A stretch of 64,000 nucleotides of DNA from Escherichia phage Sa157lw: sequence record OK322699.1. One strand, given 5' to 3'. This document shows positions 5,256 through 51,498 of the stretch, piece after piece. Made by a program: the position numbers and the translations under genes. Position 1 is the stretch's first letter. Every line of letters starts with the position of its first letter. The notes below the pieces were generated by a model, which worked only from the letters and a program-made list of their open reading frames with translations, searched no databases and was not told the DNA's origin.

Positions 5256-5265
5256 TATTGAATGC

Positions 5266-5302
5266 CTAAATACCCCATATTGGACATCCTTTATGGGGTA
5301 TT
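5266..5302 (+). promoter_or_regulatory. late-promoter motif CTAAATACCCC (5266-5276) within an 11-bp inverted repeat (5269-5279 / 5292-5302)
   Basis: AATACCCCATA / TATGGGGTATT exact reverse complements; right arm contains the GGGG SD of the ATG at 5306. Confidence 0.6.
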
Positions 5303-5305
5303 ATC

Positions 5306-7402: not shown

Positions 7403-7417
7403 TTTATCTTGAGCAAA

Positions 7418-7445
7418 AACCCCGCTTTGGCGGGGTTCTTATTAT
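7418..7445 (+). terminator. rho-independent terminator (AACCCCGC-TTTG-GCGGGGTT plus T-rich tail)
   Basis: Perfect 8-bp GC-rich stem directly after the stop at 7402. Confidence 0.6.
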
Positions 7446-7475
7446 ACCTTTGTTCATAAATTTTATTAGTTCAGA

Positions 7476-7513
7476 CTAAATACCCCATATTGGCAAATCC
7501 TTATGGGGTATTT
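7476..7513 (+). promoter_or_regulatory. late-promoter motif CTAAATACCCC (7476-7486) within a 12-bp inverted repeat (7478-7489 / 7502-7513)
   Basis: AAATACCCCATA / TATGGGGTATTT exact reverse complements; right arm contains the SD for the ATG at 7518. Confidence 0.6.
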
Positions 7514-7517
7514 TCAA

Positions 7518-20073: not shown

Positions 20074-20754
20074 ATGAGCAATATGTCAGAAAGGTTACTT
20101 GCGACGCTAGACGCGGTGACTGCCAGAGATGAAGTTGGTAAGGAGGCGATGGAAGCCGTCTCTCCACGTCCAGGTATTGACTTCGATGAAAAAACGGGCG
20201 AGTGGTTTGGTGAACGCCCAGAAGGTTATCAGCCGATTCCAGAACCTCCATCATTGGAAGATATCGCGTCCAAAGAATCCAAGGTTCCGGAGTTTGCGGA
20301 TACTGATGCCACAACAGATTACAAGCGGATACGCGATACAACATACGCCATGCAGGAAGCCACGATGTTCATGATGGGGCAAGCTGCTAAATTAGCTGCA
20401 TCTACCGAAGCCCCAAGAGCGTTTTCCGTGTTTCGTGAATTGGGCGAACTCATGCGCGGCCTGAACAAAGACCTGATGGAAAACCAAAAAACCATCAAAG
20501 CTGTGACAGGGGATAAAGAACCGCCGACTGATGACACAACCGTGGATGTTACCACTTCACCCGACGGGACCACAACAGTATCTGTTGGGAAGAAAGCGAG
20601 ATCTTCGCGCGATTTATTGAAAACGATCGAAGATGCACGCCGCCGCGCTGAAGAACGCGCCCAGGCAAAAGCCACCCAACAAACCGAAGATGAAATTATC
20701 GACGGTGAAACGGTTGACGTGAAGGAAGAAGACGATGGCGTATCAGAAGCGTGA
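20074..20754 (+). CDS. terS: terminase small subunit gp16
   Basis: ATG 20074 with GGAGG SD (ORF-track start 20068 is TTG). Central segment YAMQEATMFMMGQAAKLAASTEAPRAF resembles T4 gp16; acidic C-terminus. Confidence 0.7.
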   Translation: MSNMSERLLATLDAVTARDEVGKEAMEAVSPRPGIDFDEKTGEWFGERPEGYQPIPEPPSLEDIASKESKVPEFADTDATTDYKRIRDTTYAMQEATMFMMGQAAKLAASTEAPRAFSVFRELGELMRGLNKDLMENQKTIKAVTGDKEPPTDDTTVDVTTSPDGTTTVSVGKKARSSRDLLKTIEDARRRAEERAQAKATQQTEDEIIDGETVDVKEEDDGVSEA

Positions 20755-22945
20755 TATAGAATATGCTCCGATAAAAACGGGGTTTAAAATCGACGACGTG
20801 AAATTGCGTATGGACCAGACGTTCATGCGCAAGCCTTCTGTGCGCGCTCCACGAGTCGAGTTGATGCTAACAGATGAACAAGAAGACGAATTTGTTGAAT
20901 GTTCAATGGACGCGCATTACTTCGCTGCCAATTACTACAAGATAACGACAATCGATAAAGGCTTCATCCTTTTCGATATGCATGATTATCAGAAACAATT
21001 ATTTCACGATTTTCAAGATTATCGTTTCAATGCCGTTGTCCAGGCGCGTCAGTCCGGTAAATGCGTCCGTGGTGATACTCTTGTTTATGTCTATGATACA
21101 GTCAGTCAACAAGAGTTGCATCTCACCATAGAAGAGCTTCACAAGCGCTTCGAAGGACCGAACCATGCTGTGCCACTGAATACCATTGGCAACCACAATA
21201 AGTTTGTAGACAGCCGTTTCGGGAAACGATATTTTGTTGAGTCCGACACTGGCTGGGTTCCGGTTATTGCCGCTCATAAAACGAAAGAATACGCTGAATA
21301 CGTGGTCAGGACTGAAACCGGACGCACAATTCATGTCGCAGATGAGCACATGTTCTTCAATGAATATGGGCGCGAAGTATTTGCTAAAGACATGGAGGCC
21401 GGAGATGCCATAATGACCCAGGAGGGAATAGAATTCATCTCTGAGATCTGGGAGACTGGTGAGTACCACCACATGTATGACTTGCAAGTCAAGTCCAGCG
21501 ATCAACGTTATTACACGAATGGGTTCCTCAGCCATAATACCACGGTCGTGGCTGCGTTTCTTCTTTGGTATGCGATGTTCCACTCAGACAAAGAAATCGC
21601 GGTACTGGCAAACAAAGAGAAACAAGCGATTGAAATTCTTGACCGTATCAGGAAGGCGTATCAGGACCTCCCATTCTTCCTTCAGCAGGGTTGTGAGAAG
21701 TTTGGTTCTACACTGATAGAGTTTGAGAACGGCTCTAAGATATATGCTTATGCAACGTCTTCGGACTCTATTCGTGGTCGTTCTGTATCTCTCTTGTACG
21801 TGGACGAAGTCGCATTCATCGAAAATGACTTTGAATTTTGGGAATCAACATTCCCAGCGATCGCATCTGCTGATACTTCACGTTGTATTCTGACCAGTAC
21901 TCCGAAAGGCCAGCGAGGGTTGTTCTATGATATCGTCACCAAAGCAGACCCGCGCCATCCGCAATACAACGACTTCCATCTTACCGAAGTCCCTTGGTAC
22001 AAGGTTCCGGCGTACACCAAAGACCCTGATTGGGAAACCAAACAACGCGCTCGTCTGGGGGATGCCCGTTTTGACCAGGAATTTGGAATCAAGTTCCGTG
22101 GTTCTGTAGGTTCATTGATACCAGCCAAATGCTTGGATAAAATGACATCCAAGTTATATCGAGAGCCTAATGAGTTCACCAAAATTTACAAGGAATATGA
22201 CCCGCAACGCATCTACTTCGGGATCGCAGATACGGGGAAAGGTGTTGAAGGAGATTATTCGGTTCTGACAATTCTGGATATAACGGAATACCCGCATGTC
22301 ATAGCGGCCAAGTACAGGAACAATACAATACCTCCGATGATGTATGCATACACGATAGCTGATATGTGTACTGAATACGGGGAATGCCCTGTCCTTGTCG
22401 AGACGAATAACGACGTTGGTGGACAGGTTATCACGATCTTGTATCAAGAAATTGAGTATCCAGAGATCATATTCACGTCGACGGATAACAAAGGGACAGG
22501 GAAACGGATTGGTGGTCGTAAACCAGAGCCAGGCATTAACACCAACAGGAAAGTGCGATCTATTGGTTGTGCTAACCTGAAAGCGCTTATTGAGAAAGAA
22601 ATGTTGGTGATTGAAGATCAAGACACGATAGATGAACTCAGCACATTCGTGTTCCGTGGTGCGCGTTATGAAGCAGATGATGGATGTCACGACGACTGCG
22701 TTATGCCGTTGGTATTATATTCTTGGGCAGTTAAACAAGAATGGTTCAGTGATCTGACTTCTACCAGTATTTCTCAAGACATGAGAAATAGAATGTCTTC
22801 GACTGAGTCACAACAAGTATTCCCATTTGGTGGTTTAGTCGTGGGAGACACTCCATCTGGAACTGAGCATCTCCCTGGGTTCGGTGGTGTTCAAGTCTTC
22901 GACGAACGTTCAGGGATGACAATGGACGAGTGGTTTAAGAATTGA
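20735..22945 (+). CDS. terL: terminase large subunit gp17, interrupted by an intein
   Basis: Aligns with T4 gp17 on both sides of a 159-aa insertion: Walker A appears as QSGK...TTVVAAF; downstream YAYATSSDSIRGRSVSLLYVDE matches the T4 Walker B region. Confidence 0.9.
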   Translation: MAYQKRDIEYAPIKTGFKIDDVKLRMDQTFMRKPSVRAPRVELMLTDEQEDEFVECSMDAHYFAANYYKITTIDKGFILFDMHDYQKQLFHDFQDYRFNAVVQARQSGKCVRGDTLVYVYDTVSQQELHLTIEELHKRFEGPNHAVPLNTIGNHNKFVDSRFGKRYFVESDTGWVPVIAAHKTKEYAEYVVRTETGRTIHVADEHMFFNEYGREVFAKDMEAGDAIMTQEGIEFISEIWETGEYHHMYDLQVKSSDQRYYTNGFLSHNTTVVAAFLLWYAMFHSDKEIAVLANKEKQAIEILDRIRKAYQDLPFFLQQGCEKFGSTLIEFENGSKIYAYATSSDSIRGRSVSLLYVDEVAFIENDFEFWESTFPAIASADTSRCILTSTPKGQRGLFYDIVTKADPRHPQYNDFHLTEVPWYKVPAYTKDPDWETKQRARLGDARFDQEFGIKFRGSVGSLIPAKCLDKMTSKLYREPNEFTKIYKEYDPQRIYFGIADTGKGVEGDYSVLTILDITEYPHVIAAKYRNNTIPPMMYAYTIADMCTEYGECPVLVETNNDVGGQVITILYQEIEYPEIIFTSTDNKGTGKRIGGRKPEPGINTNRKVRSIGCANLKALIEKEMLVIEDQDTIDELSTFVFRGARYEADDGCHDDCVMPLVLYSWAVKQEWFSDLTSTSISQDMRNRMSSTESQQVFPFGGLVVGDTPSGTEHLPGFGGVQVFDERSGMTMDEWFKN
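21062..21538 (+). mobile_element. mini-intein (159 aa) inserted in the terminase P-loop
   Basis: Begins CVRGDTLV, ends GFLSHN followed by +1 Thr; block B-like TGRTIHVADEH; block G-like YDLQVKS...NGFLSHN; no endonuclease domain. Confidence 0.8.
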
Positions 22946-22948
22946 TCA

Positions 22949-22959
22949 CTAAATATCTT
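22949..22959 (+). promoter_or_regulatory. late-promoter motif variant CTAAATATCTT
   Basis: About 40 nt upstream of gp18 ATG. Confidence 0.4.
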
Positions 22960-22997
22960 TCAAATTGAGCGAAACTCTACCGAGAAGGAATAACATT

Positions 22998-24893
22998 ATG
23001 GCAACTCAAAGCTTCAGCGTTGCGCCGTCCGTACAGTGGACTGAGCGTGATGCCACGCTTCAGACTTCTCCGTCCGTGGTTGTTCAGGGCGCGACAGTCG
23101 GCAAATTTCAATGGGGTGAAGTCGAACTCCCAGTGCTGGTGACTGGTGGTGAGACGGGTTTGGTGAAGAAATTCTTCAAACCTAATGACAGCACTGCGAC
23201 AGATTTCCTTGTGATTGCAGACTTTTTGTCTTACAGCTCTATGGCATGGGTCACTCGTGTTGTTGGTCCTCTGGCCAAGAACTCTGTCACCAAAGGCCAG
23301 ACAGCCATCACGATCAAAAACAAGCTGGATTTTGAAACAGCAAGTCCGTCAGCGTCTATCACTTGGGCTGGTCGTTATCCAGGATCTCTGGGGAATGACA
23401 TCGCCATCAATGTTTGTGACTCCGCTGGATTCCCGACATGGGAATTCCGTAACAACTTTGCGTACGCACCTCAGTCTGGTGAATTCCATGTTGTGGTTGT
23501 AGACAAAGTTGGGCGCATTACTGACTCTGCTGGTGCGGTTGGTCAGGTTGACCGTATCTCTGTTTCTGGCACGGCAACCGCAGCTGGCACCATCAGTGTG
23601 GCGGGTGAAGATATCGCATATCTGGATACTGATACTCCGGCCACTTTGGCGACCAAAATTGGCGCGGCGCTGACGGCGCTAACAGATGTTTATTCTTCTG
23701 TCGTTGTTAAGTCTAACACTGTCATCGTGACCCATAAAGCCATTGGTCCCCAGACAGTTACTGCTATTGTTCCAGATGATAAGGGGCTGACTGCAACCGC
23801 CGTGATTACCACTGTTGGCGCATCTGGTTCTATTATCGAAAAATACGAACTCATGCAGAACACACAGGGTTCCAAAAAGTCCGATGGCGCGAATGCGTAC
23901 TTCAAAGATGTCATCAATGATACATCAAATTGGGTGTACACCTTCGCCACCGCTCTGGCCGCAGGTGTTGTTGAATTAGAAGGCGGCGTAGACGACTACA
24001 ATATCAACCGTGTCGCGGCTATCCAAGTTCTGAACAACGCCGAAGCATATGATGCGAAGCCAGTATTTGCATACTGTGAAGAGTTGATTGAACAACAGGC
24101 ATTAATCGACTTGTCTACCGAGCGAAAAGACACCGTTTCCTTCGTGTCGCCTTTGCGTGATACTGTGGTCGGCAACCGTGGCCGTGAGATGGACGATGTG
24201 GTCGCTTGGCGTGAAAGTCTGGTGCGCGACTCCTCCTATTTCTTCATGGACGACAACTGGGCATACGTGTACGATAAATACAACGATAAGATGCGCTGGA
24301 TCCCTGCTTGCGGCGGTACAGCGGGTGTTTGGGCACGTAGTATTGAAATCGCGGGTATCTACAAATCTCCTGCGTTCCACAACCGTGGCAAATACAACAA
24401 CTACAATCGAATGGCGTGGTCTGCGTCTTCCGATGAACGTGCCGTGTTGTACCGCAACCAGATTAACAGCATCGTGACCTTCTCCAATGAAGGTATCGTG
24501 TTGTATGGTGACAAAACTGGTCTGACTCGTCCGTCTGCTTTCGATCGTATCAATGTTCGCGGTCTGTTTATTATGGCAGAACAGAACATCGCTGCAATCG
24601 CCAAATATTACCTTGGTGAGAACAATGATGCGTTCACTCGCAGTCTGTTCAGCAACGCTGTTCGTCCTTATATTCGCCAGCTGGCAAATATGGGTGCGAT
24701 CTACGATGGTAAAGTCAAGTGTGACGAAGATAACAACACTGCTGACGTTATTGCGGCAAACCAGATGGTCGCTGGTATCTGGCTGAAACCGGAATACAGC
24801 ATCAATTGGGTGTATCTTGACTTTGCTGCAGTTCGTCCGGATATGGAGTTCTCGGAAATTGAATCCGGCGGCGGCATCGTTGCTGCTTCTTAA
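22998..24893 (+). CDS. gp18: tail sheath protein gp18
   Basis: ATG 22998 with GAAGGAA SD; GKFQWGEV and DKYNDKMRWIP motifs match T4 gp18 (GKFQWGP, DKYNDVNRWVP). Confidence 0.9.
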   Translation: MATQSFSVAPSVQWTERDATLQTSPSVVVQGATVGKFQWGEVELPVLVTGGETGLVKKFFKPNDSTATDFLVIADFLSYSSMAWVTRVVGPLAKNSVTKGQTAITIKNKLDFETASPSASITWAGRYPGSLGNDIAINVCDSAGFPTWEFRNNFAYAPQSGEFHVVVVDKVGRITDSAGAVGQVDRISVSGTATAAGTISVAGEDIAYLDTDTPATLATKIGAALTALTDVYSSVVVKSNTVIVTHKAIGPQTVTAIVPDDKGLTATAVITTVGASGSIIEKYELMQNTQGSKKSDGANAYFKDVINDTSNWVYTFATALAAGVVELEGGVDDYNINRVAAIQVLNNAEAYDAKPVFAYCEELIEQQALIDLSTERKDTVSFVSPLRDTVVGNRGREMDDVVAWRESLVRDSSYFFMDDNWAYVYDKYNDKMRWIPACGGTAGVWARSIEIAGIYKSPAFHNRGKYNNYNRMAWSASSDERAVLYRNQINSIVTFSNEGIVLYGDKTGLTRPSAFDRINVRGLFIMAEQNIAAIAKYYLGENNDAFTRSLFSNAVRPYIRQLANMGAIYDGKVKCDEDNNTADVIAANQMVAGIWLKPEYSINWVYLDFAAVRPDMEFSEIESGGGIVAAS

Positions 24894-24899
24894 AAGATC

Positions 24900-24927
24900 A
24901 ACCCCGCTTCGGCGGGGTTTTCCTTTA
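24900..24927 (+). terminator. rho-independent terminator (AACCCCGC-TTCG-GCGGGGTT plus T-run)
   Basis: Same stem as terminators at 7418, 12135, 31257, 47268. Confidence 0.65.
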
Positions 24928-24949
24928 TCCCACATATTTGAGTTATTGA

Positions 24950-25408
24950 ATGATATACGCATACAAAATTGAAATGGTTTGTAATGGAAAGGTCTACATC
25001 GGTGTGACCAATGACCCACAACGAAGATATGATCAGCATTTTGCGAATGCCTTTCATCATGGCGTCCAAAGTGAATTGTATGACGCCATGCGTAAGTATG
25101 GAACATCTGGATTTACTTTCGTTGTAATTGCTCAGACCGATGAAGTCCATAAATGGGAATTAGAGAAGCAACTCATCGCTCAATATAATTCTTATGAGAT
25201 GGGTTACAACATGAATAAAGGCGGTAATGATGGAAGTCATATGCTGGGTAAAACTGCAGCAAAATTGACATCCACAGGTGAACACATTGGTCTTGTTTCT
25301 CTCATAGATCCCCGTTGGGAATTGTGTGAAATCGAACCTGTTTCAAGTAATGTTCATCATAGTTTCGATCTTTCTTCTATGAAGATTAAAAGATTGACGA
25401 CTAATTAG
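24950..25408 (+). CDS. GIY-YIG endonuclease (putative homing endonuclease)
   Basis: N-terminal IYAYKIE...GKVYIGVT...R...H...E fits the GIY-YIG catalytic motif; inserted between the sheath and tube genes. Confidence 0.65.
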   Translation: MIYAYKIEMVCNGKVYIGVTNDPQRRYDQHFANAFHHGVQSELYDAMRKYGTSGFTFVVIAQTDEVHKWELEKQLIAQYNSYEMGYNMNKGGNDGSHMLGKTAAKLTSTGEHIGLVSLIDPRWELCEIEPVSSNVHHSFDLSSMKIKRLTTN

Positions 25409-25438
25409 AATTGTGTACTCTTATTTGGAGATATAAAA

Positions 25439-25972
25439 ATGGCGACAGTCAATGAGTTTCGCGCAGCCATGTCACGAGGGGGCGGCGTACAACGCCAACA
25501 CCGCTGGCGTGTGACTGTAAACTTTCCTTCTTTTGTTGCTGGTTCCGACACAATTCGCGACGTGTCCTTGCTGGCTGTAACTACCAACACCCCGACAGGT
25601 CAGCTGGGTGAAATTCTGGTGCCCTGGGGTGGTCGTGAACTTCCATTCCCAGGCGACCGTCGTTTCGAAGCACTGCCTGTAACATTCATTAACGTTGTGA
25701 ACAACGCGCCGTACAACGCATTTGAAGTGTGGCAGCAATTCATCAATGGTAGTGAAAACAACCGTGCCAGCGCGAATCCAGATGATTATTTCCGTGATAT
25801 CATCATGGAGCTTCTGGATGCGAATGACAATGTCACCAAGACATGGACTTTGCAGGGTGGCTGGCCTCAAAACCTCGGCCAATTGGAACTCGATATGTCT
25901 GCGATGGACTCTTATACACAGTTCACCGTCGATCTGCGTTATTTCCAAGCCGTGTCAGACAAATCTTTATAA
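25439..25972 (+). CDS. gp19: tail tube protein gp19
   Basis: C-terminus GGWPQNLGQLELDMSAMDSYTQFTVDLRYFQ vs T4 GLWPTNVGELQLDWDSNNEIQTFEVTLALDYW. Confidence 0.8.
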   Translation: MATVNEFRAAMSRGGGVQRQHRWRVTVNFPSFVAGSDTIRDVSLLAVTTNTPTGQLGEILVPWGGRELPFPGDRRFEALPVTFINVVNNAPYNAFEVWQQFINGSENNRASANPDDYFRDIIMELLDANDNVTKTWTLQGGWPQNLGQLELDMSAMDSYTQFTVDLRYFQAVSDKSL

Positions 25973-26039
25973 TGTCCTCGGTGCTGGGGGAATCATATTC
26001 CCCCTCACTAATTACAAGAAAATGTTGAGGACTTAGATC

Positions 26040-27722
26040 ATGGCTGGATACGGCAGAGGGTTCTTCGGTTTGTTTGGCGGCGGCGGTTTGGTGAACGCTA
26101 AAGTCGACACCGATAAGTTAGCCCAAAAACAAGATGAACGGTTGCTAACCAAAGCGACAGTTGTTGCTCTGGACGACGCTCAAGACGGTTCTATAATCCT
26201 TCAGGGTGGTGCGAACACCTACAACTATGTTGGCGTTGAAAGTGAACTTCTCAGCGTTAAAACAGTTGTGGAAGAATATCAGTCCATGGCTCAACAGCCT
26301 GAAATTCGCAAAGCGGTGGACATTATTGTCAATGATGTTGTCACCTGTGAGGAAGATGAAACTCCAGTGACAGTAAACCTTGACAAAGTTGAAGGGATAT
26401 CTGATACTGTTAAAGAATCTATCACTGAATGCTTCAAAGAAGTTATGCACTTGATGGACTTTGACAATACGGCATATCAGAAGATCCGGAAATGGTATGT
26501 TGACGGTCGACAAGCATATCATGTCATCGTTGATCCCACGAATAAAAAAGGCGGGATCAAGAAATTAGTTATGCTTGATTCTCGTTGCATTCGTCCTGTC
26601 TATATCGTTGAGAAGGCGATGCGTGAAGGCGGTATTGAAGCAATAGAATCCGTAACATTGAAGTATTATTACAACCCGAATTATAATCGAAACCAATTCA
26701 CTGGCCAATCTGGTACTTCCCAGAACTTCCAGCCTTCACAGCAAGAACTCGTATTCGATGACGAAAGCATTGTTTACATCGATAGTGGTGAAGAGCCATT
26801 GGCCAATGGTATTGTCCCAGGCCTTTTAAATCCTGCTATCCGTCCGTTGAACAACCTGGTTACGACTGAAGATGCGACTGTAATTTATGCCATCACTCGC
26901 GCCCCTGAGAAACGCGCATTCTATCTTGACGTCGGTACTCTCGGTAAGAAATCTGCTGAAGAATACATGACCATGATGATGGGTAAATTCAAAAACCGCA
27001 ACGCATATGACCGCACCACTGGTAAGATAACAGGTAATGCCCATCTTATGGGTATTGCAGAGGATTATTGGTTGCCGCGCCGCGAAGGTCAGAATGCTAC
27101 AGAGATCGCGACTGTTGGGGGTGGGAATCAATTGGGTGAAATGGATCACGTGAACTATTTCCGTGAAAAACTCTATGATGCTCTAATGATCCCTAAGAGC
27201 CGCCTCCAAGAGGAAGGATCTATTAACATTGGGGGTTCTAACCTTGCGGAGATTACACAGGAAGAGCTGCGTTTCAGCAAGTTCTGTGCTGGGTTACGTC
27301 GTCGTTACTCCCATTTCTTTATGGAGTTTTTACGTCGCCAATTAATTTTGAAAGGCGTGACTGACGAAAAAGATTGGAATGAAAAAATCAAGCCGTTTAT
27401 TAAGTTTGAATTCACTTCTGATAGCTATATTCGTGAGCAACAAGAAAACGCCATATTAAATGATCGCCTGGCTTCTCTGAACACTGTTGAGCCTTTTGTT
27501 GGTTCTATATTCTCCATCGATTATGTCATGCGGAATGTTCTGCGTATGTCAGACGAAGAAGTTAAAGAACAACAGGCTAAGATCGCGGAAGAGAAGAAGA
27601 AAGGTCTCTATCCGAAGGTTCAAGCAGATGAAACTGGCAATTATAGTGGTTCAGATGTTAGTCCGTTGAAGTTTAAACCTGAGACTCTCCCATTCTCCGG
27701 TTCAACAGACGATAGTATTTAA
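26040..27722 (+). CDS. gp20: portal vertex protein gp20
   Basis: ITRAPEKRAFYLDVG...GIAEDYWLPRREGQNATEIATVGG matches T4 gp20 ITRAPDRRVWYVDTG...[24 protein letters not shown]. Confidence 0.85.
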   Translation: MAGYGRGFFGLFGGGGLVNAKVDTDKLAQKQDERLLTKATVVALDDAQDGSIILQGGANTYNYVGVESELLSVKTVVEEYQSMAQQPEIRKAVDIIVNDVVTCEEDETPVTVNLDKVEGISDTVKESITECFKEVMHLMDFDNTAYQKIRKWYVDGRQAYHVIVDPTNKKGGIKKLVMLDSRCIRPVYIVEKAMREGGIEAIESVTLKYYYNPNYNRNQFTGQSGTSQNFQPSQQELVFDDESIVYIDSGEEPLANGIVPGLLNPAIRPLNNLVTTEDATVIYAITRAPEKRAFYLDVGTLGKKSAEEYMTMMMGKFKNRNAYDRTTGKITGNAHLMGIAEDYWLPRREGQNATEIATVGGGNQLGEMDHVNYFREKLYDALMIPKSRLQEEGSINIGGSNLAEITQEELRFSKFCAGLRRRYSHFFMEFLRRQLILKGVTDEKDWNEKIKPFIKFEFTSDSYIREQQENAILNDRLASLNTVEPFVGSIFSIDYVMRNVLRMSDEEVKEQQAKIAEEKKKGLYPKVQADETGNYSGSDVSPLKFKPETLPFSGSTDDSI

Positions 27723-42066: not shown

Positions 42067-42531
42067 ATGGCGCGTAATACGCTGGACATCTTGAAACTTT
42101 CAGCTGTTAACGATGAGGCCAGCATCGTTGATTGTATGGTTGAAGTTCAATTGAACCAAGATAAACCAGGAATTTTTCTGGGTATCAAGGAAACGCTGAG
42201 CCGCATCGGGGTGAACACTCGTCAAGAGCCGAATACCCTGTACCAAACATGTCATATTCTGCATAAATTTGGCAGATATCACATCGTGCACTTCAAGCAT
42301 CTTTTCATGCTGGATGGGCATTACAACGGCTTTACGCGTGAAGATGTCCTGCGTATGAATCGGATTATTCGGCTTTTGGAGCAGTGGAATATGGTTAAAA
42401 TACTGCATCCGGAACAGATTACCGAAGTTGCTGATATGTCTCGAATCAAAGTTGTAAAACATGACCAAGTTTCTGATTGGAAACTGGTTCCAAAATATAC
42501 CATCCGCCCGACTCGGGCGAAAAGCGAATAA
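42067..42531 (+). CDS. regA: translational repressor RegA
   Basis: LYQTCHILHKFGRYHIVHFKHLFML and DWKLVPKYTIR match T4 RegA. Alignment suggests the true start may be the internal ATG at 42136 (MVEVQLNQDKPGIFLGIKETL vs T4 MIEITLKKPEDFLKVKETL). Confidence 0.8.
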   Translation: MARNTLDILKLSAVNDEASIVDCMVEVQLNQDKPGIFLGIKETLSRIGVNTRQEPNTLYQTCHILHKFGRYHIVHFKHLFMLDGHYNGFTREDVLRMNRIIRLLEQWNMVKILHPEQITEVADMSRIKVVKHDQVSDWKLVPKYTIRPTRAKSE

Positions 42532-42547
42532 CTGGAGTCGCTATATT

Positions 42548-43411
42548 ATGACAACTACATTTAATAAAAACGTGAGACTGAATCTGGCTTTTGGTAATGC
42601 TGCAGGGGACGTGACCGACCCCGACTTTAGCAAAATTCGCAATCAGGCAAAACTCGTGCTGGAAGAGACCCGCGAACTTCTGGAAGCGGCTTATTACGAT
42701 CATCAAGTGGTTCTAACATTAGAATTGAATCCTCGAGAAAGCGAGACGCCGACCACTACCGAAGATCTGATGAAAGCCATCATGGACGCGCAGGGTGATA
42801 TCACTACTGTTAACGACGGTGTGGCCCATATCGCGGGTTTCAATGGTGATGAGTGCTTACAGCGCGTGTTTGCTTCCAACATGAGCAAGTTTATCCGCTC
42901 TGAAGATGAAGTCGGTCCGGCTCTGGACTATTACTATTCTCGCGGTTTCCCTGATGGACAATTGCGTGTGGAAGGCGAATTCCCTCAGGCATGTATTAAA
43001 GTTAATGAAACTGTCGTTTGGAATGGTAAAGAATATCCTAAAGGGAAATTCCTTAAAAACATGGCTGTTTTCCAAGAGCCTGATTTTTCTGACATGCTGA
43101 CCAAAACTCCTTCCCGTCAGATCAACGATATCGTTGCCAGCATGGCGATTGAAGAAGGTCAGGTGTTTATCGATGATCTCAATGGCGTGGCGTTGGTATC
43201 CCCGAACACATTGGGTGTAATCCTTTCCATGGCTGTTGAAAAAACTTCTCAACCTGTAGAGATCGACGGGCAAATCGAAAGTTATGTGCCAGCGTTCATC
43301 GTGGATGACACCAATATGCCTAAGCTGTGTGGGGTGTGGGGTTCTAATGTTCGTGTTTATGCGAGCACTCCAGTGCAGAACACGGTAACACACCTCTCCC
43401 GTATCGATTAA
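42548..43411 (+). CDS. hypothetical protein (287 aa), possible MazG-like N-terminal domain
   Basis: ATG 42548 with GGAG SD; EETRELLEA segment loosely MazG-like; assignment weak. Confidence 0.35.
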   Translation: MTTTFNKNVRLNLAFGNAAGDVTDPDFSKIRNQAKLVLEETRELLEAAYYDHQVVLTLELNPRESETPTTTEDLMKAIMDAQGDITTVNDGVAHIAGFNGDECLQRVFASNMSKFIRSEDEVGPALDYYYSRGFPDGQLRVEGEFPQACIKVNETVVWNGKEYPKGKFLKNMAVFQEPDFSDMLTKTPSRQINDIVASMAIEEGQVFIDDLNGVALVSPNTLGVILSMAVEKTSQPVEIDGQIESYVPAFIVDDTNMPKLCGVWGSNVRVYASTPVQNTVTHLSRID

Positions 43412-43433
43412 TATAAACCGTTATTCATTAAAC

Positions 43434-43465
43434 AACAGAGGCTATAATGGCCTCTGTTTTTGTAT
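43434..43465 (+). terminator. terminator hairpin (ACAGAGGC-TATAATG-GCCTCTGT plus T-run)
   Basis: Perfect 8-bp stem followed by TTTTTGTATT. Confidence 0.55.
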
Positions 43466-43480
43466 TCTAGAGAGGATACC

Positions 43481-44704
43481 ATGAAAGATAAACCGTGTGA
43501 CATTCCTTATTGCGGTGTTCGGGAAACCAAAATTAAATCTGCACACCCCACGTTAAGTCCATTCCATAAACAACTCGCATACGAATGGATGAGCGAGCGC
43601 TATAAGATCCACGTGAGAAAGGACGTCCAACGTCTTCCTGCTCCTTGGACGGATAATCCCATACTACGGCAGGTCAAGTTCTGTAACGTCCGGAGAGAGC
43701 ACGACAGGCAGTCTCTTAACCTGATCAACAATATCGTCAAGAACGATGCTCTGGGCATTGCCGACAAGATGTTCAACTGTGTTCTGTTCCGCATGTTCAA
43801 CCTCTGGGACCCGATCAAGGCTATCGGTGACGCTCGTACTATCAAAGAGTTCGCAAACATCGATCTTGATGCAACCCGCAAAAGTCTTCAGGAATTTGAG
43901 GCCAACGGTGGTAAGATCTTCACCAATGCCTTCAACACAGGCGGTCTAAAGCAGTGTCTGGCGTTCCCCGAACTCGTTGTCAACCACAAGGAGCAGCGCT
44001 TTGGTGGTATGATGGTTAAGGTACACCGTGTTGGCCAGGGTATCGTTGATGAATTGGATTACAAGGTCGCCAAGAAGCTGGTTGAAGAAAATCCTGGGGA
44101 GTACACGATCGAGGGCTGGGAGCCGTACATGCCGATGCGTGTTATCCGTTCCCTGAAGGCATTTGTCAACAAGTATCCTGATTATTTCAATGATCTTTTA
44201 CGTCTTGACTCTCCGCTGAAAGTTTACCAGCGCATGTATGACGACATTGAAGGGCTTGGGCCATTCCTGGCATATCAGATATGGGTGGACTTCACATACA
44301 TCCCTGAGTATCCATTCAGTGAGAATCACTTCACCATCGCTGGCCCAGGTTGCCGTGCGGGTATTGACCTGATGTTCCTGGATAAGGACGGTATGACTCA
44401 TGAAGAGTGCATCTTCTGGGTTCGAGATCACCAGTATCAATTGTTTGCCCAGTATGGTTATGTCCAAGAGCAGTTCTGGTCAGCCGAAGCGCCGGAAGAT
44501 CAGTGCATGAATGTCATGCAGCTGGAGAACATGTTCTGTGAATTGAGCAAGTACACCCGCTGTGTTGAGGCCATTGAGAGAGGGGAAAAGCCACGCGGCA
44601 AGGTCGGTTACGATGGAGGCGGAGAATACAAAAAGCGGTGCGATGAAGTTGTCCTCAAACGCGGTTCCGTCAATTTGTTAGATCGTTTGAAGAAACCTGA
44701 ATAA
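43481..44704 (+). CDS. hypothetical protein (407 aa), Cys-containing N-terminus
   Basis: ATG 43481 with GAGAGGA SD; KPCDIPYCGV N-terminus; no family recognised. Confidence 0.45.
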   Translation: MKDKPCDIPYCGVRETKIKSAHPTLSPFHKQLAYEWMSERYKIHVRKDVQRLPAPWTDNPILRQVKFCNVRREHDRQSLNLINNIVKNDALGIADKMFNCVLFRMFNLWDPIKAIGDARTIKEFANIDLDATRKSLQEFEANGGKIFTNAFNTGGLKQCLAFPELVVNHKEQRFGGMMVKVHRVGQGIVDELDYKVAKKLVEENPGEYTIEGWEPYMPMRVIRSLKAFVNKYPDYFNDLLRLDSPLKVYQRMYDDIEGLGPFLAYQIWVDFTYIPEYPFSENHFTIAGPGCRAGIDLMFLDKDGMTHEECIFWVRDHQYQLFAQYGYVQEQFWSAEAPEDQCMNVMQLENMFCELSKYTRCVEAIERGEKPRGKVGYDGGGEYKKRCDEVVLKRGSVNLLDRLKKPE

Positions 44705-44816
44705 AGAATCGCTTTACTTCATTCTTCAATAACCCCCTTTCAACGTATATTGACCTCACTTTAACGACGCGCCCATTTAGGGCGCTCAATTTGAACTGAA
44801 ACAGGAAGACTATACC

Positions 44817-46838
44817 ATGGCAGAATTCAAACCTTTCGCAACGGCTGTTAATGATAACGTGCTGGCGATGTCCGCAACTGGTCTGTTTATGACCAACGTT
44901 GATAAAGATGCTCTGTGGGATTTGTATTTGGCATCCTTCCCAGCTGGTACCAACCCGATGTACCGCGAACGCACTGAACACGACTGCACCTGCTGTAAAC
45001 AATTCATCCGTAATATCGGCGGCGTCGTGACTATCGATGCTGACCTGAACGTTATCTCGATTTGGGACAACATTGAGCTGGGTAACGAATACGACGTGGT
45101 GGCTGCGGCGCTGTCGACCTTCGTTAAACAACACGCAATCGTCGACGTGTATTTCAACGATTCTGCTAAAGTCGGCCTGTCTCATAACCACGAATCTGGT
45201 GAAGACGGCAAAATCCGCACGTATAACCATTTCCACACCGAACTGCTCGGCAGCTATGTCCTGCGTTCTGATGCTATTGCATCTAAAAAAGGTGAAATCC
45301 GACAGGCTATCGAATTATTTGAACGCGGTCTGCGTGAAATTACTCTGGAATCAGCAGAAATCGTTCTGGAATTGATTGATCAGAATTCTTTGTATCGCGG
45401 CGCTGAACATAAAGCTGCGGTGATGGGCTTCGTAGTAGCCAAGACGGCATATGAAGAAATCCCAGAATCTAACCGTTCTCTGTGGGCATGGCGCACTGGT
45501 TATCGTTCAAACAATCATGTTCCACATGGCATTCGCAACACCGTTATCGGTACTCTGTTGACTGATATCAGTGAAGGCGTGGAACTGGAAAAGGCCGTTA
45601 AGTCGTTTGAAACCAAAGTTGCCCCAGCGAACTACAAACGCCCGACGGCTCTGGTCTCCAAGTCCATGATCGAAAACGCTCAGAAAGAAGTGATTGCTCT
45701 CGGTCTGGAAGATTCGCTGGCGCGTCGTTATGCAGTTTATGACGACCTGACGATCAATAACGTTCTGTTTGCAGACCTGGCTGCTCAAAAAGCGATGGAT
45801 CCATTCGCTCAACTGGCCGCCGAAGTGAAAACGCCGACCAAGTCGCTGGATAAAGTTGAAGAGATTGGCATTGACGACTTCCTGAGCAATATCCTGCCGA
45901 AAGCGCATTCAATGGAAGTGCTGGTTGAAAACTCGCATACTGGCAACCTTATGTCTCTGGTCGCTCCGGCTATTGCAGGTGCTCCTAACCTTTTCAAATG
46001 GGGCAACGGTTTCTCATGGTCATACAACGGCGAAGTGGCCGACTCCATCAAAGAGCGTGTGAAAGCGGCTGGCGGTAAAGTCGACGGGTTCCTCCGTGTA
46101 TCCCTGGCTTGGCACAACAACGATGACCTCGATCTGCATATGTTCTTTAACAATATGGAACATGTGTACTTCCGCGATCGTCGTTCAATGACTGGTGCTC
46201 ATCTCGATATCGACATGAACGGTATGGACGGCATCGACCCGAACCGCTCTCCGGTAGAAAACATCATCTTCACTGATGAAAGAAAGCTGCGTGACGGTGA
46301 ATATCGTTTTGAGATTCACAACTACAACCAACGTGAAAAGATCGACGAAGGGTTTGAAATTGAAGTTGAATACAAAGGCGCTACGCAACGTTTTAGCCAC
46401 AATGGGTTAAAAGACCAGGGGCGCATCACTGCCGTCGTTCTGACTGTTAAAGACAAACAAGTCGTTAGCATCAAGTCTGAGCTGGCGAATGTTGATAAAT
46501 CCAAAGAAATTTGGGGCATTAAGACAGCGACCTTCCAGAAGGTACAGCTGGTCCTGAACTCACCAAACCATTGGGATGGTGAACAAACTGGCAACAAGCA
46601 CGTCTTCTTCATCTTGGAAGGTTGTGCGAATCCTGAAGGTACTCGTGGTTTCTACAATGAATATCTGAAGCCGGAACTGGATAAACATCGTAAGGTTTTT
46701 GAAATGTTGGGTAGTAAAATGAAAGTACAACCCAACGAAAACCAACTGTCTGGTTTGGGGTTCTCGACAACGCAACGCAACCATGTGTTCGTCAAAGTGT
46801 CCGGCGCGTTTAACCGTACTGTAAAAGTCATTTTCTAA
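44817..46838 (+). CDS. hypothetical protein (673 aa)
   Basis: Long ORF with AGGAAG SD; no P-loop or other motif recognised. Confidence 0.5.
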   Translation: MAEFKPFATAVNDNVLAMSATGLFMTNVDKDALWDLYLASFPAGTNPMYRERTEHDCTCCKQFIRNIGGVVTIDADLNVISIWDNIELGNEYDVVAAALSTFVKQHAIVDVYFNDSAKVGLSHNHESGEDGKIRTYNHFHTELLGSYVLRSDAIASKKGEIRQAIELFERGLREITLESAEIVLELIDQNSLYRGAEHKAAVMGFVVAKTAYEEIPESNRSLWAWRTGYRSNNHVPHGIRNTVIGTLLTDISEGVELEKAVKSFETKVAPANYKRPTALVSKSMIENAQKEVIALGLEDSLARRYAVYDDLTINNVLFADLAAQKAMDPFAQLAAEVKTPTKSLDKVEEIGIDDFLSNILPKAHSMEVLVENSHTGNLMSLVAPAIAGAPNLFKWGNGFSWSYNGEVADSIKERVKAAGGKVDGFLRVSLAWHNNDDLDLHMFFNNMEHVYFRDRRSMTGAHLDIDMNGMDGIDPNRSPVENIIFTDERKLRDGEYRFEIHNYNQREKIDEGFEIEVEYKGATQRFSHNGLKDQGRITAVVLTVKDKQVVSIKSELANVDKSKEIWGIKTATFQKVQLVLNSPNHWDGEQTGNKHVFFILEGCANPEGTRGFYNEYLKPELDKHRKVFEMLGSKMKVQPNENQLSGLGFSTTQRNHVFVKVSGAFNRTVKVIF

Positions 46839-46875
46839 TTGATTTGACAACAACTTCGTAATAAGGAACAAAGAA

Positions 46876-47247
46876 ATGTTTGATCAAGCAACCCGTTTAA
46901 AACTGCGTTTTAACTCTAACAAAGGTCTGCTGTCTGTTGAGCAGGTTTGGGATCTGAATCTGAACGCACTGAACGAGCTGGCGAAAGATCTGAGCCGTCA
47001 GGTGAAAGAAGCAGCCAGCGATGAAGAAGACTTCATCGGTGTGAAAAGCGCGGTCGATTCTCAGTTACAACTGCGGTTCGATATCGTGAAAGCGATCATC
47101 GGTGTTAAACTGAAAGAACGCGATGAAAGCGCGACCGCAGCAGAGCGTAAAGCGAACAACCAGGCGATCATGGAACTGATCCAGCGTAAGAAACAACAGG
47201 AACTGGAAGGTCTGTCTGTTGAAGAACTGGAAAAACTCCTGAAATAA
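46876..47247 (+). CDS. hypothetical protein
   Basis: AAGGAA SD; charged, helical-looking. Confidence 0.5.
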   Translation: MFDQATRLKLRFNSNKGLLSVEQVWDLNLNALNELAKDLSRQVKEAASDEEDFIGVKSAVDSQLQLRFDIVKAIIGVKLKERDESATAAERKANNQAIMELIQRKKQQELEGLSVEELEKLLK

Positions 47248-47267: not shown

Positions 47268-47296
47268 AAACCCCGCCGTGTGCGGGGTTTCTTTTG
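47268..47296 (+). terminator. rho-independent terminator (AAACCCCGC-loop-GCGGGGTTT plus T-run)
   Basis: Perfect stem after stop at 47247. Confidence 0.65.
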
Positions 47297-47306
47297 GACA
47301 AAAATC

Positions 47307-47717
47307 ATGAAATCTATTACGTGTGATTACTGCGGTCAACCTGCCCAATACGTCGGGTGTGATGTTGTATACCCCCACCGCCCCGACCTCCGCAATCTGA
47401 AGTTCTGGGTATGCTCGCCATGCGACGCTCGTGTGGGTTGCCATACCCATGGGGATGGTAGACAACCTCTGGGAAGGATGGCGAATGCCGCTCTCCGTGC
47501 TGCTAAGCAGGAAGCTCATAGATCGTTTGACCCTATCTGGAAAGGTGGGCAGAGGAGCAGGAGTGATGCTTACAGCTGGCTGGCTCATAATCTGGGGATC
47601 AAGAAGCGCGATTGCCATATCGGCTTGTTCGATATCGATATGTGCCGTAAAGTAGTCGCTGTGTGTAATCAACTAAAGGCACAAGATAATGTCAAAGGAA
47701 ATACAAGAAGCATTTGA
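47307..47717 (+). CDS. zinc-ribbon protein (CxxC...CxxC)
   Basis: ATG 47307; CDYCGQ ... CSPCDARVGCH cysteine pairs. Confidence 0.45.
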   Translation: MKSITCDYCGQPAQYVGCDVVYPHRPDLRNLKFWVCSPCDARVGCHTHGDGRQPLGRMANAALRAAKQEAHRSFDPIWKGGQRSRSDAYSWLAHNLGIKKRDCHIGLFDIDMCRKVVAVCNQLKAQDNVKGNTRSI

Positions 47718-48925: not shown

Positions 48926-51142
48926 ATGATTGAATCATTAACATTTAAAAATGCGGTAGCAACCGTCGCGCCGTCTAACCATGTAATCGTTGTGGATATC
49001 TCCGGTTCCATGTACCGTTCACTTCCTGAAGTTCGCAAGCATCTGAAGGAAAATCTCCCGTCTCTGGTTAAACCAGAAGATACCGTCAGCATTCTTTACT
49101 TTTCATCCCGTGGTGATTTCGGTACGGTATTCGCTGGCCGTCAGATCAATAGCGCGACCGATCTCAGTGAAATCAATAAACTGATTGACCGCTTCCTGCA
49201 ACCGTCCGGTTGTACGGGATTTGTAGAACCTCTGAAGTTGGCTGCTGAAACCGCGTTGAGCCTGAACAAACCTGGTTATGTCAATAACCTGGCGTTCATG
49301 ACCGACGGCTATGACAACTGCTGGCGCTCTAATGAAATTCTGGCAGCAGCTGAAGTACTGCCCAAGGCGTTCGATAATATTACATTCATCGAATATGGCT
49401 GGTATTGTAACCGCGAACTTCTGGCTCTGATGTCCGAGCGTTCTGGCGCGACTCACGTGTTTGCCGAAGGTCAGACTGAATATCAGACCGAACTGGAAAA
49501 CGTACTGAAATCATCTACGCCGAAAGTGGTTGTTGATGTTCCCCTGGTTTACACTCATGCCATCTACGTTGAAAACGGCGTGGCAACTGTGCTAGCCGTA
49601 CAACCCGATGAAGAACACCCGATTGGCCACGTCAGCATCCCTGAAAGCGTTTCTCAGCTGTGGGTTGTAAACCCTAACATGATCGACCAGCTGGATAATC
49701 TGGCAGACACCCAGGCGGCATACGTGCTGGCATTCTATGGCGTGTACACCATGGACGCCGATCTGGTCTGGGCCGCGCTGAAGAAGACGGGTGACGTCCG
49801 CTTCATCAAACAATACAGCAACTGTTTCACCAAGCAGGACTATTCCAACATCAAAGTCGATCTGACCCAGGCTATCGTGGATGAAACTCTACGCGGCGTA
49901 GATGGCATCGATTACAATATGGTTCCAGCTGAAGATGCAACGACCATTGTTGATGTCTTGACCTACCTGGCCGAAGCCGATGTCTCTGTTGTCACTAAGC
50001 ATCCATTGTTCTCTTACAACAGCATCGGTCGCGGCACTGTGCAGAAAGTTGATGACACTGAAGACAAGCTGGCTGAACAAATCGCCGAAGCCAAAACCAA
50101 AGCAGAGCGTAAAGCGCTGGCTCTCAAACTGGCTGAGCACGAAGATTGGACACCGGAATTTACTCCGGTTGATGACAAAGGGATTGTCCCAATTAGCAAT
50201 CTGGTCTACAATTCAGAGCGCCCTAACATCAGCATTCAGACCGTTCAGCATGGGACGGTTGTTGTGCCGGAGTTCGTACAGAAGAAATATGAACTCCCTG
50301 AAGAACTGGGAACCTGGCGTTATCGTAATTACACCATCGTCAAAGATGGAATCATCAACCTGAAGACGATGCCGATTACTGCCGAATCTCCGATTGTCCG
50401 AGCTAAGGTTGTCCAAGATTTGATCGCCATGGGCGTTAATGTATTTGGTGGACCGGAAATCTTCATCGTTAATTTAGAAAGCGTTCCGATGGTCAACCGC
50501 GCCATGACCAAGAACATCAGTGCTGCCGAATTCTTCGCTGACAACGTTCGTCGCGAAGCGCTGAAGGCAAAACAGAAAGTTCTGAAATTCTATCGTGATG
50601 AACTGGTTGGCAAAGGCAATGCAACTGGTCTGGCTTCTAAATATGGTAAAGAAGCCGCCGATTTCTTGTCGGCAAATGGCATTCGCGACTACGGGTTCTC
50701 GCCGAAAACTACTTCTGTGGAATCAACCGATGTCTACATGAGCCGTGAGCTGAATGTGAAAATCAAAGGTGCTTCGTCGCTGCCGAGCATTGCGTCAGTT
50801 ATCAAAAAGCAAGCAGATGGTAAAAAACTGAATGTCGCTGATCAGTTGATTGCCAATGCTTTGGCCGAATACGACGCTTTTGTTAAATCGCCAATGATCA
50901 CCAGCGTACCTGAAGAGACTCAGAAAAAGCTGATTGAAAGCTGGATCGGAGACGCAGCAAAAGCGGCCATTAACGAAGTCCGCGCCCTGAACAAAACTCT
51001 GTCTAAAGTAGTTTACGGCATCGTCGCTGGTCATGGTTGGTTCACTGATTTGGATCTGGAAGAGTCTACGATGGATGTAGAAGTTGATGGGGTGAAATAC
51101 ACCGTCACTGCCGAACTGGCCGAAAAAGAAATCAAAATCTAA
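48926..51142 (+). CDS. von Willebrand factor A (VWA) domain protein (738 aa)
   Basis: N-terminal VVVDISGSM (MIDAS DxSxS) followed by VWA-like topology; long C-terminal region of unknown function. Confidence 0.6.
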   Translation: MIESLTFKNAVATVAPSNHVIVVDISGSMYRSLPEVRKHLKENLPSLVKPEDTVSILYFSSRGDFGTVFAGRQINSATDLSEINKLIDRFLQPSGCTGFVEPLKLAAETALSLNKPGYVNNLAFMTDGYDNCWRSNEILAAAEVLPKAFDNITFIEYGWYCNRELLALMSERSGATHVFAEGQTEYQTELENVLKSSTPKVVVDVPLVYTHAIYVENGVATVLAVQPDEEHPIGHVSIPESVSQLWVVNPNMIDQLDNLADTQAAYVLAFYGVYTMDADLVWAALKKTGDVRFIKQYSNCFTKQDYSNIKVDLTQAIVDETLRGVDGIDYNMVPAEDATTIVDVLTYLAEADVSVVTKHPLFSYNSIGRGTVQKVDDTEDKLAEQIAEAKTKAERKALALKLAEHEDWTPEFTPVDDKGIVPISNLVYNSERPNISIQTVQHGTVVVPEFVQKKYELPEELGTWRYRNYTIVKDGIINLKTMPITAESPIVRAKVVQDLIAMGVNVFGGPEIFIVNLESVPMVNRAMTKNISAAEFFADNVRREALKAKQKVLKFYRDELVGKGNATGLASKYGKEAADFLSANGIRDYGFSPKTTSVESTDVYMSRELNVKIKGASSLPSIASVIKKQADGKKLNVADQLIANALAEYDAFVKSPMITSVPEETQKKLIESWIGDAAKAAINEVRALNKTLSKVVYGIVAGHGWFTDLDLEESTMDVEVDGVKYTVTAELAEKEIKI

Positions 51143-51175: not shown

Positions 51176-51186
51176 AGGAAATGAAT

Positions 51187-51498
51187 ATGAGCAACAAACC
51201 GACTTATGTTGATGTCATGCGCGATTTGGCCCAATACGCATGTGACAACCTGAACATGGAAACTTGGCGCGACGGCGATCATAAAGAAAAGTTCGATAAT
51301 ATCGACGACAACATCGATGCGTTGGCTCCTCTTCGGGCCAAGAGCGATCTCGGCGGTGATGATCTTGACATGATTGAACTCATCATGGAAGTTGAAGAAC
51401 AATATGATGTTGAAATCAGTGATGACTGGGTAGGCAAACATGGTGATGATCCCACGCTCGGCGAATTAGCTGAATTGGTAGTTGCCCTCAGCAAGTAA
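51187..51498 (+). CDS. acyl carrier protein-like protein with Ser-to-Asp at the phosphopantetheine site
   Basis: DLGGDDLDMIELIMEVEEQYDVEI aligns with E. coli ACP [24 protein letters not shown]; the conserved Ser is Asp (codon 51361-51363). Confidence 0.6.
   Translation: MSNKPTYVDVMRDLAQYACDNLNMETWRDGDHKEKFDNIDDNIDALAPLRAKSDLGGDDLDMIELIMEVEEQYDVEISDDWVGKHGDDPTLGELAELVVALSK

Follow-up and report, generated by a model that had tools for sequence, protein, structure and literature searches.

A ViI gp160-type thymidine-hypermodification gene and a DUF8224 gene side by side in Escherichia phage Sa157lw

Do two large genes that lie side by side next to the replication module of a phage both serve DNA modification? 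The question is raised by a 64,000-nucleotide stretch of Escherichia phage Sa157lw (sequence record OK322699.1; the whole stretch is called the window below), in which an original prediction, made from the letters alone, had noted two unassigned proteins and proposed them, from their position, as candidate DNA-modification enzymes. Both open reading frames (ORFs) are indeed there, on the plus strand between 43481 and 46838, and encode proteins of 407 amino acids (ORF A) and 673 amino acids (ORF B). The stretch 43400-46900 shares 100% identity with Salmonella phage SeF3a and 99.1% with Salmonella phage Vi01 (ViI); by its sequence, the window belongs to a Kuttervirus, that is, to the ViI-like Ackermannviridae.

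We consider it rather probable that the two neighbours have no functional relation, ORF A being gp160 of ViI, a catalytic paralog of the transferases of thymidine hypermodification, and ORF B a DUF8224 protein that forms a unit with a partner gene. The candidacy for DNA modification thus holds for ORF A, through its identity with gp160, its Pfam family PF18723, its predicted fold and the clusters and fusions of its relatives, and lacks support for ORF B.

43481..44704, plus strand: ORF A, 407 amino acids (MKDKPCDIPYCGV...), ortholog of ViI gp160 (Vi01_130c, YP_004327501), PF18723
44817..46838, plus strand: ORF B, 673 amino acids, long-form Pfam PF26675 (DUF8224)

As the original prediction held, neither protein has a P-loop or a polymerase motif: a regular-expression search found no Walker A motif ([AG]x4GK[ST]) in ORF A or ORF B, and neither has a polymerase or kinase match in Pfam.

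Identity and genomic company of ORF A

Far from being unassigned, ORF A matches the Pfam family PF18723 (HMUDK_hel, "5-hmdU DNA kinase, helical domain"; 5-hmdU, 5-hydroxymethyl-deoxyuridine) with E = 4e-83 and a score of 279.5 bits against a cut-off of 25, covering positions 5-280 of the 281 in the profile, and some GenBank records already name the PF18723 protein aGPT-Pplase clade 1. The original prediction had named the aGPT-Pplase family as one to compare, and both this match and the glycosylase-like fold of the model described below bear the relation out. The ORF A protein is 100% identical to Vi01_130c, whose record note reads orf00160. The rule that gpN corresponds to orf000N was verified on three genes against Table 1 of PMC8989533 (gp226, YP_004327553, orf00226; gp243, YP_004327565, orf00243; gp247, YP_004327568, orf00247), and from this rule together with the full identity it follows that ORF A is gp160. 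The gene also occupies the same place in ViI, after the clamp loader, RegA and a MazG-like gene. Judged by sequence, then, ORF A is the Kuttervirus copy of ViI gp160 and a member of the thymidine-hypermodification gene set. Its candidacy for this pathway has been in print since 2018, and the present assignment is a rediscovery.

The mechanical ORF around ORF A spans 43460-44704 and opens with TTG, while the ATG at 43481 gives 407 amino acids. Since a GAGAGG ribosome-binding site precedes this ATG, and since a terminator-like hairpin upstream of it overlaps the TTG, the 407-amino-acid reading is the correct one; it is also the version annotated in related records. Other GenBank records annotate terminators within the same stretch.

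43434..43458, plus strand: terminator-like hairpin upstream of ORF A, an 11-bp stem followed by a T run (pattern scan and sequence)

The pathway itself is well described. Lee et al. (2018) presented two aG/PT-PPlase paralogs, gp160 among them, for which a DNA-glycosylase fold is predicted, and included gp160 in a mixture of five lysates that turned 5-hmdU DNA into 5-(2-aminoethoxy)methyl-deoxyuridine (5-NeOmdU) DNA (PMC5889632). The assignments of 2021 made gp67 and gp243 5-hmdU DNA kinases, gp247 a serine:DNA transferase and gp226 a pyridoxal-phosphate (PLP)-dependent decarboxylase; nothing beyond purified kinase, gp247 and gp226 is needed for 5-NeOmdU, and gp160 was given no role (PMC8989533).

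The company that gp160 keeps in other phages ties it to this pathway. The Vibrio Ackermannviridae phage 207E48.1 carries a gp160 homolog of 46% identity in a gene cluster that follows the DNA polymerase gene just downstream (4151-8182 and 10607-11761 of the compared sequence), in the order HMUD2 kinase, ADDT, two small genes, the gp160 homolog, four genes and a thymidylate-synthase-like gene. All genes of this cluster are annotated as hypothetical in GenBank, and the cluster may be a new side result. Comparison with hypermodification clusters, which the original prediction had proposed for both proteins, therefore speaks for ORF A, whose homolog lies inside one, and not for ORF B, since DUF8224 is absent from this phage. 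The partner genes of ViI gp160 are found 60 kb from it in the ViI genome, with gp243 (HMUD2 kinase) and gp247 (ADDT) just downstream of the DNA polymerase gene (20129-27312 of the compared sequence). Because these two genes stand beside the DNA polymerase gene in ViI as they do in the Vibrio phage, the arrangement suggests that the enterobacterial lineage relocated gp160, to the region of the clamp loader and RegA. Across the phage collection, the tallies of gp160 and ADDT homologs by host genus are nearly equal.

A second association is by fusion. In the SP10-like Bacillus phage SBSphiC, a 636-amino-acid protein joins a P-loop kinase to a gp160 domain, and its gene adjoins a thymidylate-synthase-like gene (judged by eye); SP10 gp186 is likewise a kinase fused to a helical domain (PMC5889632). 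The C-terminal half of the gp186-type fusion, as seen in SBSphiC, has the WTD-P, N-V-[DR]-R-x(2)-D-R, GPGC and FCExxKY motifs of gp160. ORF A differs from the fusions in being free-standing and without a P-loop, the kinases of its lineage being separate genes outside the window.

What gp160 may do in thymidine hypermodification

The model of ORF A has a helix-hairpin-helix (HhH) DNA-glycosylase-like fold and resembles the 5-phosphomethyl-deoxyuridine (5-PmdU) glycinyltransferase 8Z2M. Among 30 gp160 sequences, with identity down to 41%, the motif E349-N350-x-x-C353-E354-x-x-K357-Y358 is invariant, as is G288-P-G-C291, and E-N-x-x-C-E is placed near the end of the last long helix. This invariant E-N-x-x-C-E motif may be a new side result. 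In the solved transferases a Cys attacks C6 of the flipped 5-PmdU while a Glu and a Thr bind metal, the active-site residues of PaMx11 gp46 being E243, T244 and C247 (PMC11472151, PMC13458397); that enzyme has E-T-x-x-C, and ORF A has E-N-x-x-C-E. From the Cys/Glu/Thr chemistry of the transferases and the motif of gp160 we infer a catalytic paralog that acts on 5-PmdU.

The pathway converts 5-hmdU in replicated phage DNA to 5-NeOmdU, and gp160 is one of its two glycosylase-fold proteins. Like the HhH glycosylases and the AADT enzymes, gp160 would flip the modified uracil out of the duplex, and Cys353, together with Glu349 and Glu354, would act on 5-PmdU. As a catalytic paralog of the serine:DNA transferase gp247, it may use another co-substrate or another sequence context. 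Since purified enzymes make 5-NeOmdU without gp160, its step would lie beside or after the main route.

Several points weigh against this assignment. The ADDT family (PF18724, formerly aGPT-Pplase clade 2), which holds ViI gp247, M6 gp51, PaMx11 gp46 and PDB entries 8Z2M and 8Z2N, is a Pfam family separate from that of ORF A, and PF18724 gives no match in ORF A at E <= 10. Comparison of gp160 with gp247 and its ADDT relatives gave no signal by BLASTP, by profile-sequence search or by profile-profile alignment with hhalign, for which the ADDT alignment was shallow (eight Ackermannviridae sequences). The correspondence of E-N-x-x-C to E-T-x-x-C is proposed from the fold, from the shape of the motif and from its place close to the domain end, and not from alignment or superposition. 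The present Pfam name of PF18723, a kinase helical domain, hints at an accessory role, and the pathway literature reports no activity of gp160 alone (PMC5889632, PMC8989533). Unlike gp247, moreover, gp160 is dispensable for serine transfer (PMC8989533).

Two other roles have to be weighed against a catalytic one. It is possible, though doubtful, that gp160 is non-catalytic, a DNA-binding and base-flipping accessory that works in trans with the kinases gp67 and gp243; it would then be the free-standing counterpart of the helical domain of the SP10-like fusions and would raise the extent or the specificity of phosphorylation. Apart from the Pfam name, this role would account for the fusion of the domain to kinases in SBSphiC and SP10 gp186 (PMC5889632), and it agrees with the finding that the M6 kinase alone phosphorylates only ~23% of 5-hmdU in vitro, and that the transferase and decarboxylase steps run without gp160 (PMC8989533). 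However, the SP10 kinase domain is already active by itself (PMC8989533), and a pure binding domain would give little reason for an invariant Cys with invariant Glu residues on either side. In addition, no clade-2 transferase was detected in SP10 (PMC5889632 Table 3), which leaves the fused clade-1 domain as the only candidate for glutamate transfer in that phage. Quite unlikely in our estimate, and itself catalytic, is a role in which gp160 and its clade-1 relatives decide the fate of 5-PmdU that is not hypermodified, by turning it into ordinary thymidine after replication. In the older literature on phage PhiW-14, in keeping with such a role, putrescinylthymine and thymine are both said to derive from hydroxymethyluracil at the DNA level. 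With Cys353, gp160 could form an exocyclic-methylene intermediate like that of the transferases; this intermediate would react with a hydride donor or with water in place of an amino acid, and gp160 could in this way set the partial (~16-40%) level of modification. Such a role is consistent with the only partial substitution by 5-NeOmdU in Ackermannviridae DNA (PMC11721090; bioRxiv 10.64898/2026.05.19.726188) and with the conversion of 5-PmdU DNA to thymidine by M6 gp51 and borohydride (PMC8989533).

Altogether, we prefer gp160 as a catalytic paralog of the transferases. At the gene level, thymidine hypermodification has one remaining gap, namely what the clade-1 glycosylase-fold paralog does, and the Cys/Glu motif offers a target for mutagenesis. 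For annotation, the 407-amino-acid gene is best labelled as a ViI gp160-type (PF18723) component of 5-NeOmdU formation, neither hypothetical nor a kinase.

ORF B, a DUF8224 protein with a partner gene

ORF B is assigned to PF26675 (DUF8224), both this exact protein and all listed homologs carrying the precomputed assignment. The Pfam copy that we scanned lacked PF26675, which explains why ORF B found no match there; NCBIfam gave none either, nor did PADLOC at E <= 0.01. Sequence searches of the Protein Data Bank (PDB), with the single protein or with a profile, returned only chance-level matches, and a Foldseek search of the PDB returned nothing at E <= 0.001, the best hits being antibody-like beta-sandwich chains. 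A literature search found no paper that mentions DUF8224, and the family has no described function. It is large: a word-indexed search gave 6028 hits, and at E < 1e-30 there are 1219 clusters at 50% identity. Nearly all members are 650-690 amino acids long, with 40-50% identity to ORF B over the full length. They occur in phiCbK-like Caulobacter phages and Bastille-like Bacillus phages, in phages of Vibrio, Pseudomonas, Stenotrophomonas, Xanthomonas, Microcystis and Cellulophaga, and in bacterial genomes (Micromonosporaceae, myxobacteria, Bradyrhizobium and others).

The Vi01 reference splits ORF B into Vi01_129c (491 amino acids) and Vi01_128c (183 amino acids), both noted as orf00158 (7418-9437 of the compared sequence). 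In the window and in all listed relatives it is an intact 673-amino-acid ORF, and the split is likely a frameshift or a sequencing error in the reference.

The most consistent companion of the long form is a small acidic protein. Profile searches found its gene in all 18 close viral loci, in all 63 distant viral loci and in 79 of the 80 bacterial loci of the long form, hence in 160/161 overall, mostly directly downstream and on the same strand; it was found in none of the five short-form loci. The partners are ~125 amino acids long, share 33-47% identity among phage and actinobacterial copies, and the copy in the window has the conserved N-terminus MFxxATRLKLRF..G.L..E.LWDL.L. DUF8224 and its partner are therefore an autonomous two-gene unit, conserved from phages to actinobacteria, and ORF B would work as a unit with the 123-amino-acid gene downstream.

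46876..47247, plus strand: gene for the 123-amino-acid acidic partner of long-form DUF8224, PHROG 2018, no Pfam family

The AlphaFold2 model of ORF B (predicted local distance difference test, pLDDT, 83) has five parts: an N-terminal alpha/beta domain with the conserved motif TEHDCxCCKQF, a helical part, a second alpha/beta domain, an all-beta segment and a basic C-terminal alpha/beta domain.

44817..46061, plus strand: ORF B residues 1-415, conserved core shared with the ~540-amino-acid short form (alpha/beta with HDCxCC, helical, second alpha/beta)
46074..46502, plus strand: ORF B residues ~420-562, putative all-beta TerD-like sandwich, boundaries inferred
46503..46838, plus strand: ORF B residues 563-673, basic C-terminal alpha/beta domain (isoelectric point, pI, 9.5) with NSPNHWDG, GNKH, LEGC and RGFYNE motifs

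In the predicted model, residues ~420-562 have the beta-sandwich fold of TerD, and D437, D439, D464, D466 and E481 of this segment are invariant. The rest of the protein has no match among solved structures. The short form (~540 amino acids, also PF26675) aligns to ORF B residues 4-396; that of PA_LZ02 keeps a similar C-terminal domain and lacks the beta segment (by eye); the segment seems to have been inserted in the long form only. The short form is found in Pamexvirus and Bosavirus phages, where the genes for ribonucleotide reductase and DNA ligase flank it, and the Bosavirus locus additionally has a polynucleotide kinase/phosphatase gene. The division into two forms, the TerD-like segment and the obligate partner may be new side results.

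A link of ORF B to DNA modification is not supported, and position as a sign of such a role fails when the family is followed beyond this lineage. Within +/-10 kb of DUF8224, gp160 homologs were found in 0 of 62 distant viral loci. The Vibrio phage 207E48.1, whose complete 162.8-kb genome (assembled from overlapping pieces) has homologs of gp160, ADDT, HMUD2 and the PLP enzyme, has no DUF8224 by tblastn (E <= 0.01) or by profile hidden Markov model (E <= 1). Conversely, DUF8224 is found in phages of Caulobacter (28 records) and Xanthomonas (23 records), genera absent from the listed gp160 and ADDT tallies. The published reconstitution of 5-NeOmdU from purified enzymes did not use ORF B (PMC8989533). 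From these four lines of evidence we place ORF B outside the hypermodification gene set; its adjacency to ORF A is specific to the enterobacterial Ackermannviridae sampled.

What remains for DUF8224 as a modification enzyme, be it of the thymidine pathway or of a modification not yet discovered, is its place beside gp160 and the MazG-like gene in 18/18 close Ackermannviridae loci, a strong conservation of the kind expected of enzymes, and the short-form relatives in Pamexvirus, a thymidine-hypermodifying group (PMC8989533). Set against the distant loci, the Vibrio genome, the mismatch of genera, the occurrence in bacterial chromosomes and a reconstitution that works without DUF8224, and given that neither the fold nor the sequence of ORF B matches a transferase, glycosylase, kinase or methylase, this makes such an enzyme very improbable. 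We give next to no credence to the product name DNA-directed RNA polymerase, which ORF B bears in the Guerrero, GEC_vB_N6 and BIS47 records: neither a polymerase domain nor a polymerase fold was found, and the 673-amino-acid gene should be labelled DUF8224 instead.

With low confidence, we place the unit in early nucleic-acid metabolism or repair, where it would carry a metal-binding module. In phages the neighbours of DUF8224 are replication genes (ligase, PolA, DnaB, primase and helicase). On the same strand and no more than 3 kb away, 11 of the 63 distant viral loci and two of the five short-form loci have an ATP-dependent ligase gene, and it is because ligase genes recur nearby that a link to nucleic-acid end repair is conceivable. 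Directly upstream of DUF8224 lies an RtcB RNA ligase gene in a Bradyrhizobium genome (8604-9944 of the compared locus) and a PhoD-like phosphatase gene in Enhygromyxa salina (7973-9922 of the compared locus). Together with the DNA ligase gene beside the short form and the polynucleotide kinase/phosphatase gene of Bosavirus, these genes may hint at nucleic-acid end processing. DUF8224 would then be a soluble factor that binds Ca2+ and/or Zn2+ in early DNA or RNA metabolism of the phage.

This role has its difficulties. The association with ligase, RtcB, polynucleotide kinase and PhoD genes is genuine yet weak and counts as a lead at most; that with ligases is modest and may reflect no more than a shared location in the replication module, and the neighbours in bacteria are not conserved. 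ORF B is acidic overall (pI 5.7), which disfavours general DNA binding. As for the TerD-like segment, TerD (PF02342) gives no Pfam match in ORF B at E <= 10, and hhalign of DUF8224 against TerD, TerE, TerZ-like and TerF-N proteins of a Klebsiella plasmid gave a probability of 0.1%, so that the resemblance is one of predicted fold only. Unlike the TerD family (PDB 2KXT, 2QZ7; PF02342), the domain is embedded in a 673-amino-acid multidomain protein and has no ter operon genes nearby.

Variable neighbours in bacterial chromosomes around a self-contained two-gene unit, and the presence of DUF8224 in phages and bacteria alike, would also suit a conflict module, that is, a pair that serves anti-defence or host takeover in phages and acts as a cassette for defence or stress in bacteria. 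TerD-family proteins belong to ter stress-resistance operons, which counts in its favour. We nevertheless hold such a module to be unlikely: neither ORF B nor its partner has a PADLOC match (E <= 0.01), conflict genes seldom keep identity as high as 40-50% between phyla and phage families, and the phage copies lie among replication genes and not in accessory islands. An early role in nucleic-acid metabolism thus stays our preferred, if tentative, reading of the unit. With >1200 clusters at 50% identity, DUF8224 and its ~125-amino-acid partner are among the larger conserved gene pairs of unknown function in unrelated phages and bacteria; since most of the protein has no match among solved structures, it makes a reasonable target for structural and genetic work.

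Surrounding genes

The local gene order is UvsY, nuclease, UvsW-like helicase, clamp, clamp loader, RegA, MazG-like gene, ORF A and ORF B, followed by the 123-amino-acid gene, DUF3268, an 83-amino-acid gene, Phage_gp49_66, a vWA protein and an acyl-carrier-protein-like gene. The two large genes had been thought to follow RegA directly; in fact the MazG-like gene intervenes.

42067-42531: RegA, upstream of the MazG-like gene
42548..43411, plus strand: MazG-like nucleoside-triphosphate pyrophosphohydrolase gene between RegA and ORF A, PHROG 2144, E = 4e-132
47280-47717: DUF3268 zinc-finger protein, Pfam E = 5.6e-37
48926-51142: 738-amino-acid protein, vWA domain at the N-terminus, PHROG 2426 (unknown function)
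51181-51498: acyl-carrier-protein-like gene directly after the 738-amino-acid vWA gene

The vWA gene and the acyl-carrier-protein-like gene are kept as a pair in the close Ackermannviridae, but the Vibrio phage genome has neither. A link between DUF8224 and vWA proteins, along the lines of TerY, was considered and dropped, a vWA homolog lying within 10 kb in only one of 62 distant loci. The start of the DUF3268 gene differs in every related record, the products being 79 to 136 amino acids long against 145 for the mechanical ORF, and a spurious antisense ORF of 203 amino acids overlaps the gene.

For the MazG-like gene, the alignment to PHROG 2144 begins at residue 30 of a longer mechanical ORF (42461-43411), and the gene is annotated at 864 nucleotides in the Vi01, Guerrero and sal1 records; one GenBank record names its product a PAS-domain protein. 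The N-terminal 184 amino acids share 41% identity with the product of a 166-amino-acid gene that follows RegA-GroES in Vibrio phage 207E48.1 (42288-42782 of the compared sequence), which means that ~100 C-terminal residues are extra in the protein of the window. That gene is far from the gp160 homolog of the Vibrio phage, whose own neighbours are not MazG-like, and the idea of MazG and gp160 as a conserved adjacent pair was therefore dropped. The enzyme possibly clears the pool of deoxythymidine and deoxyuridine triphosphates (dTTP/dUTP) for the hydroxymethyluracil pathway.

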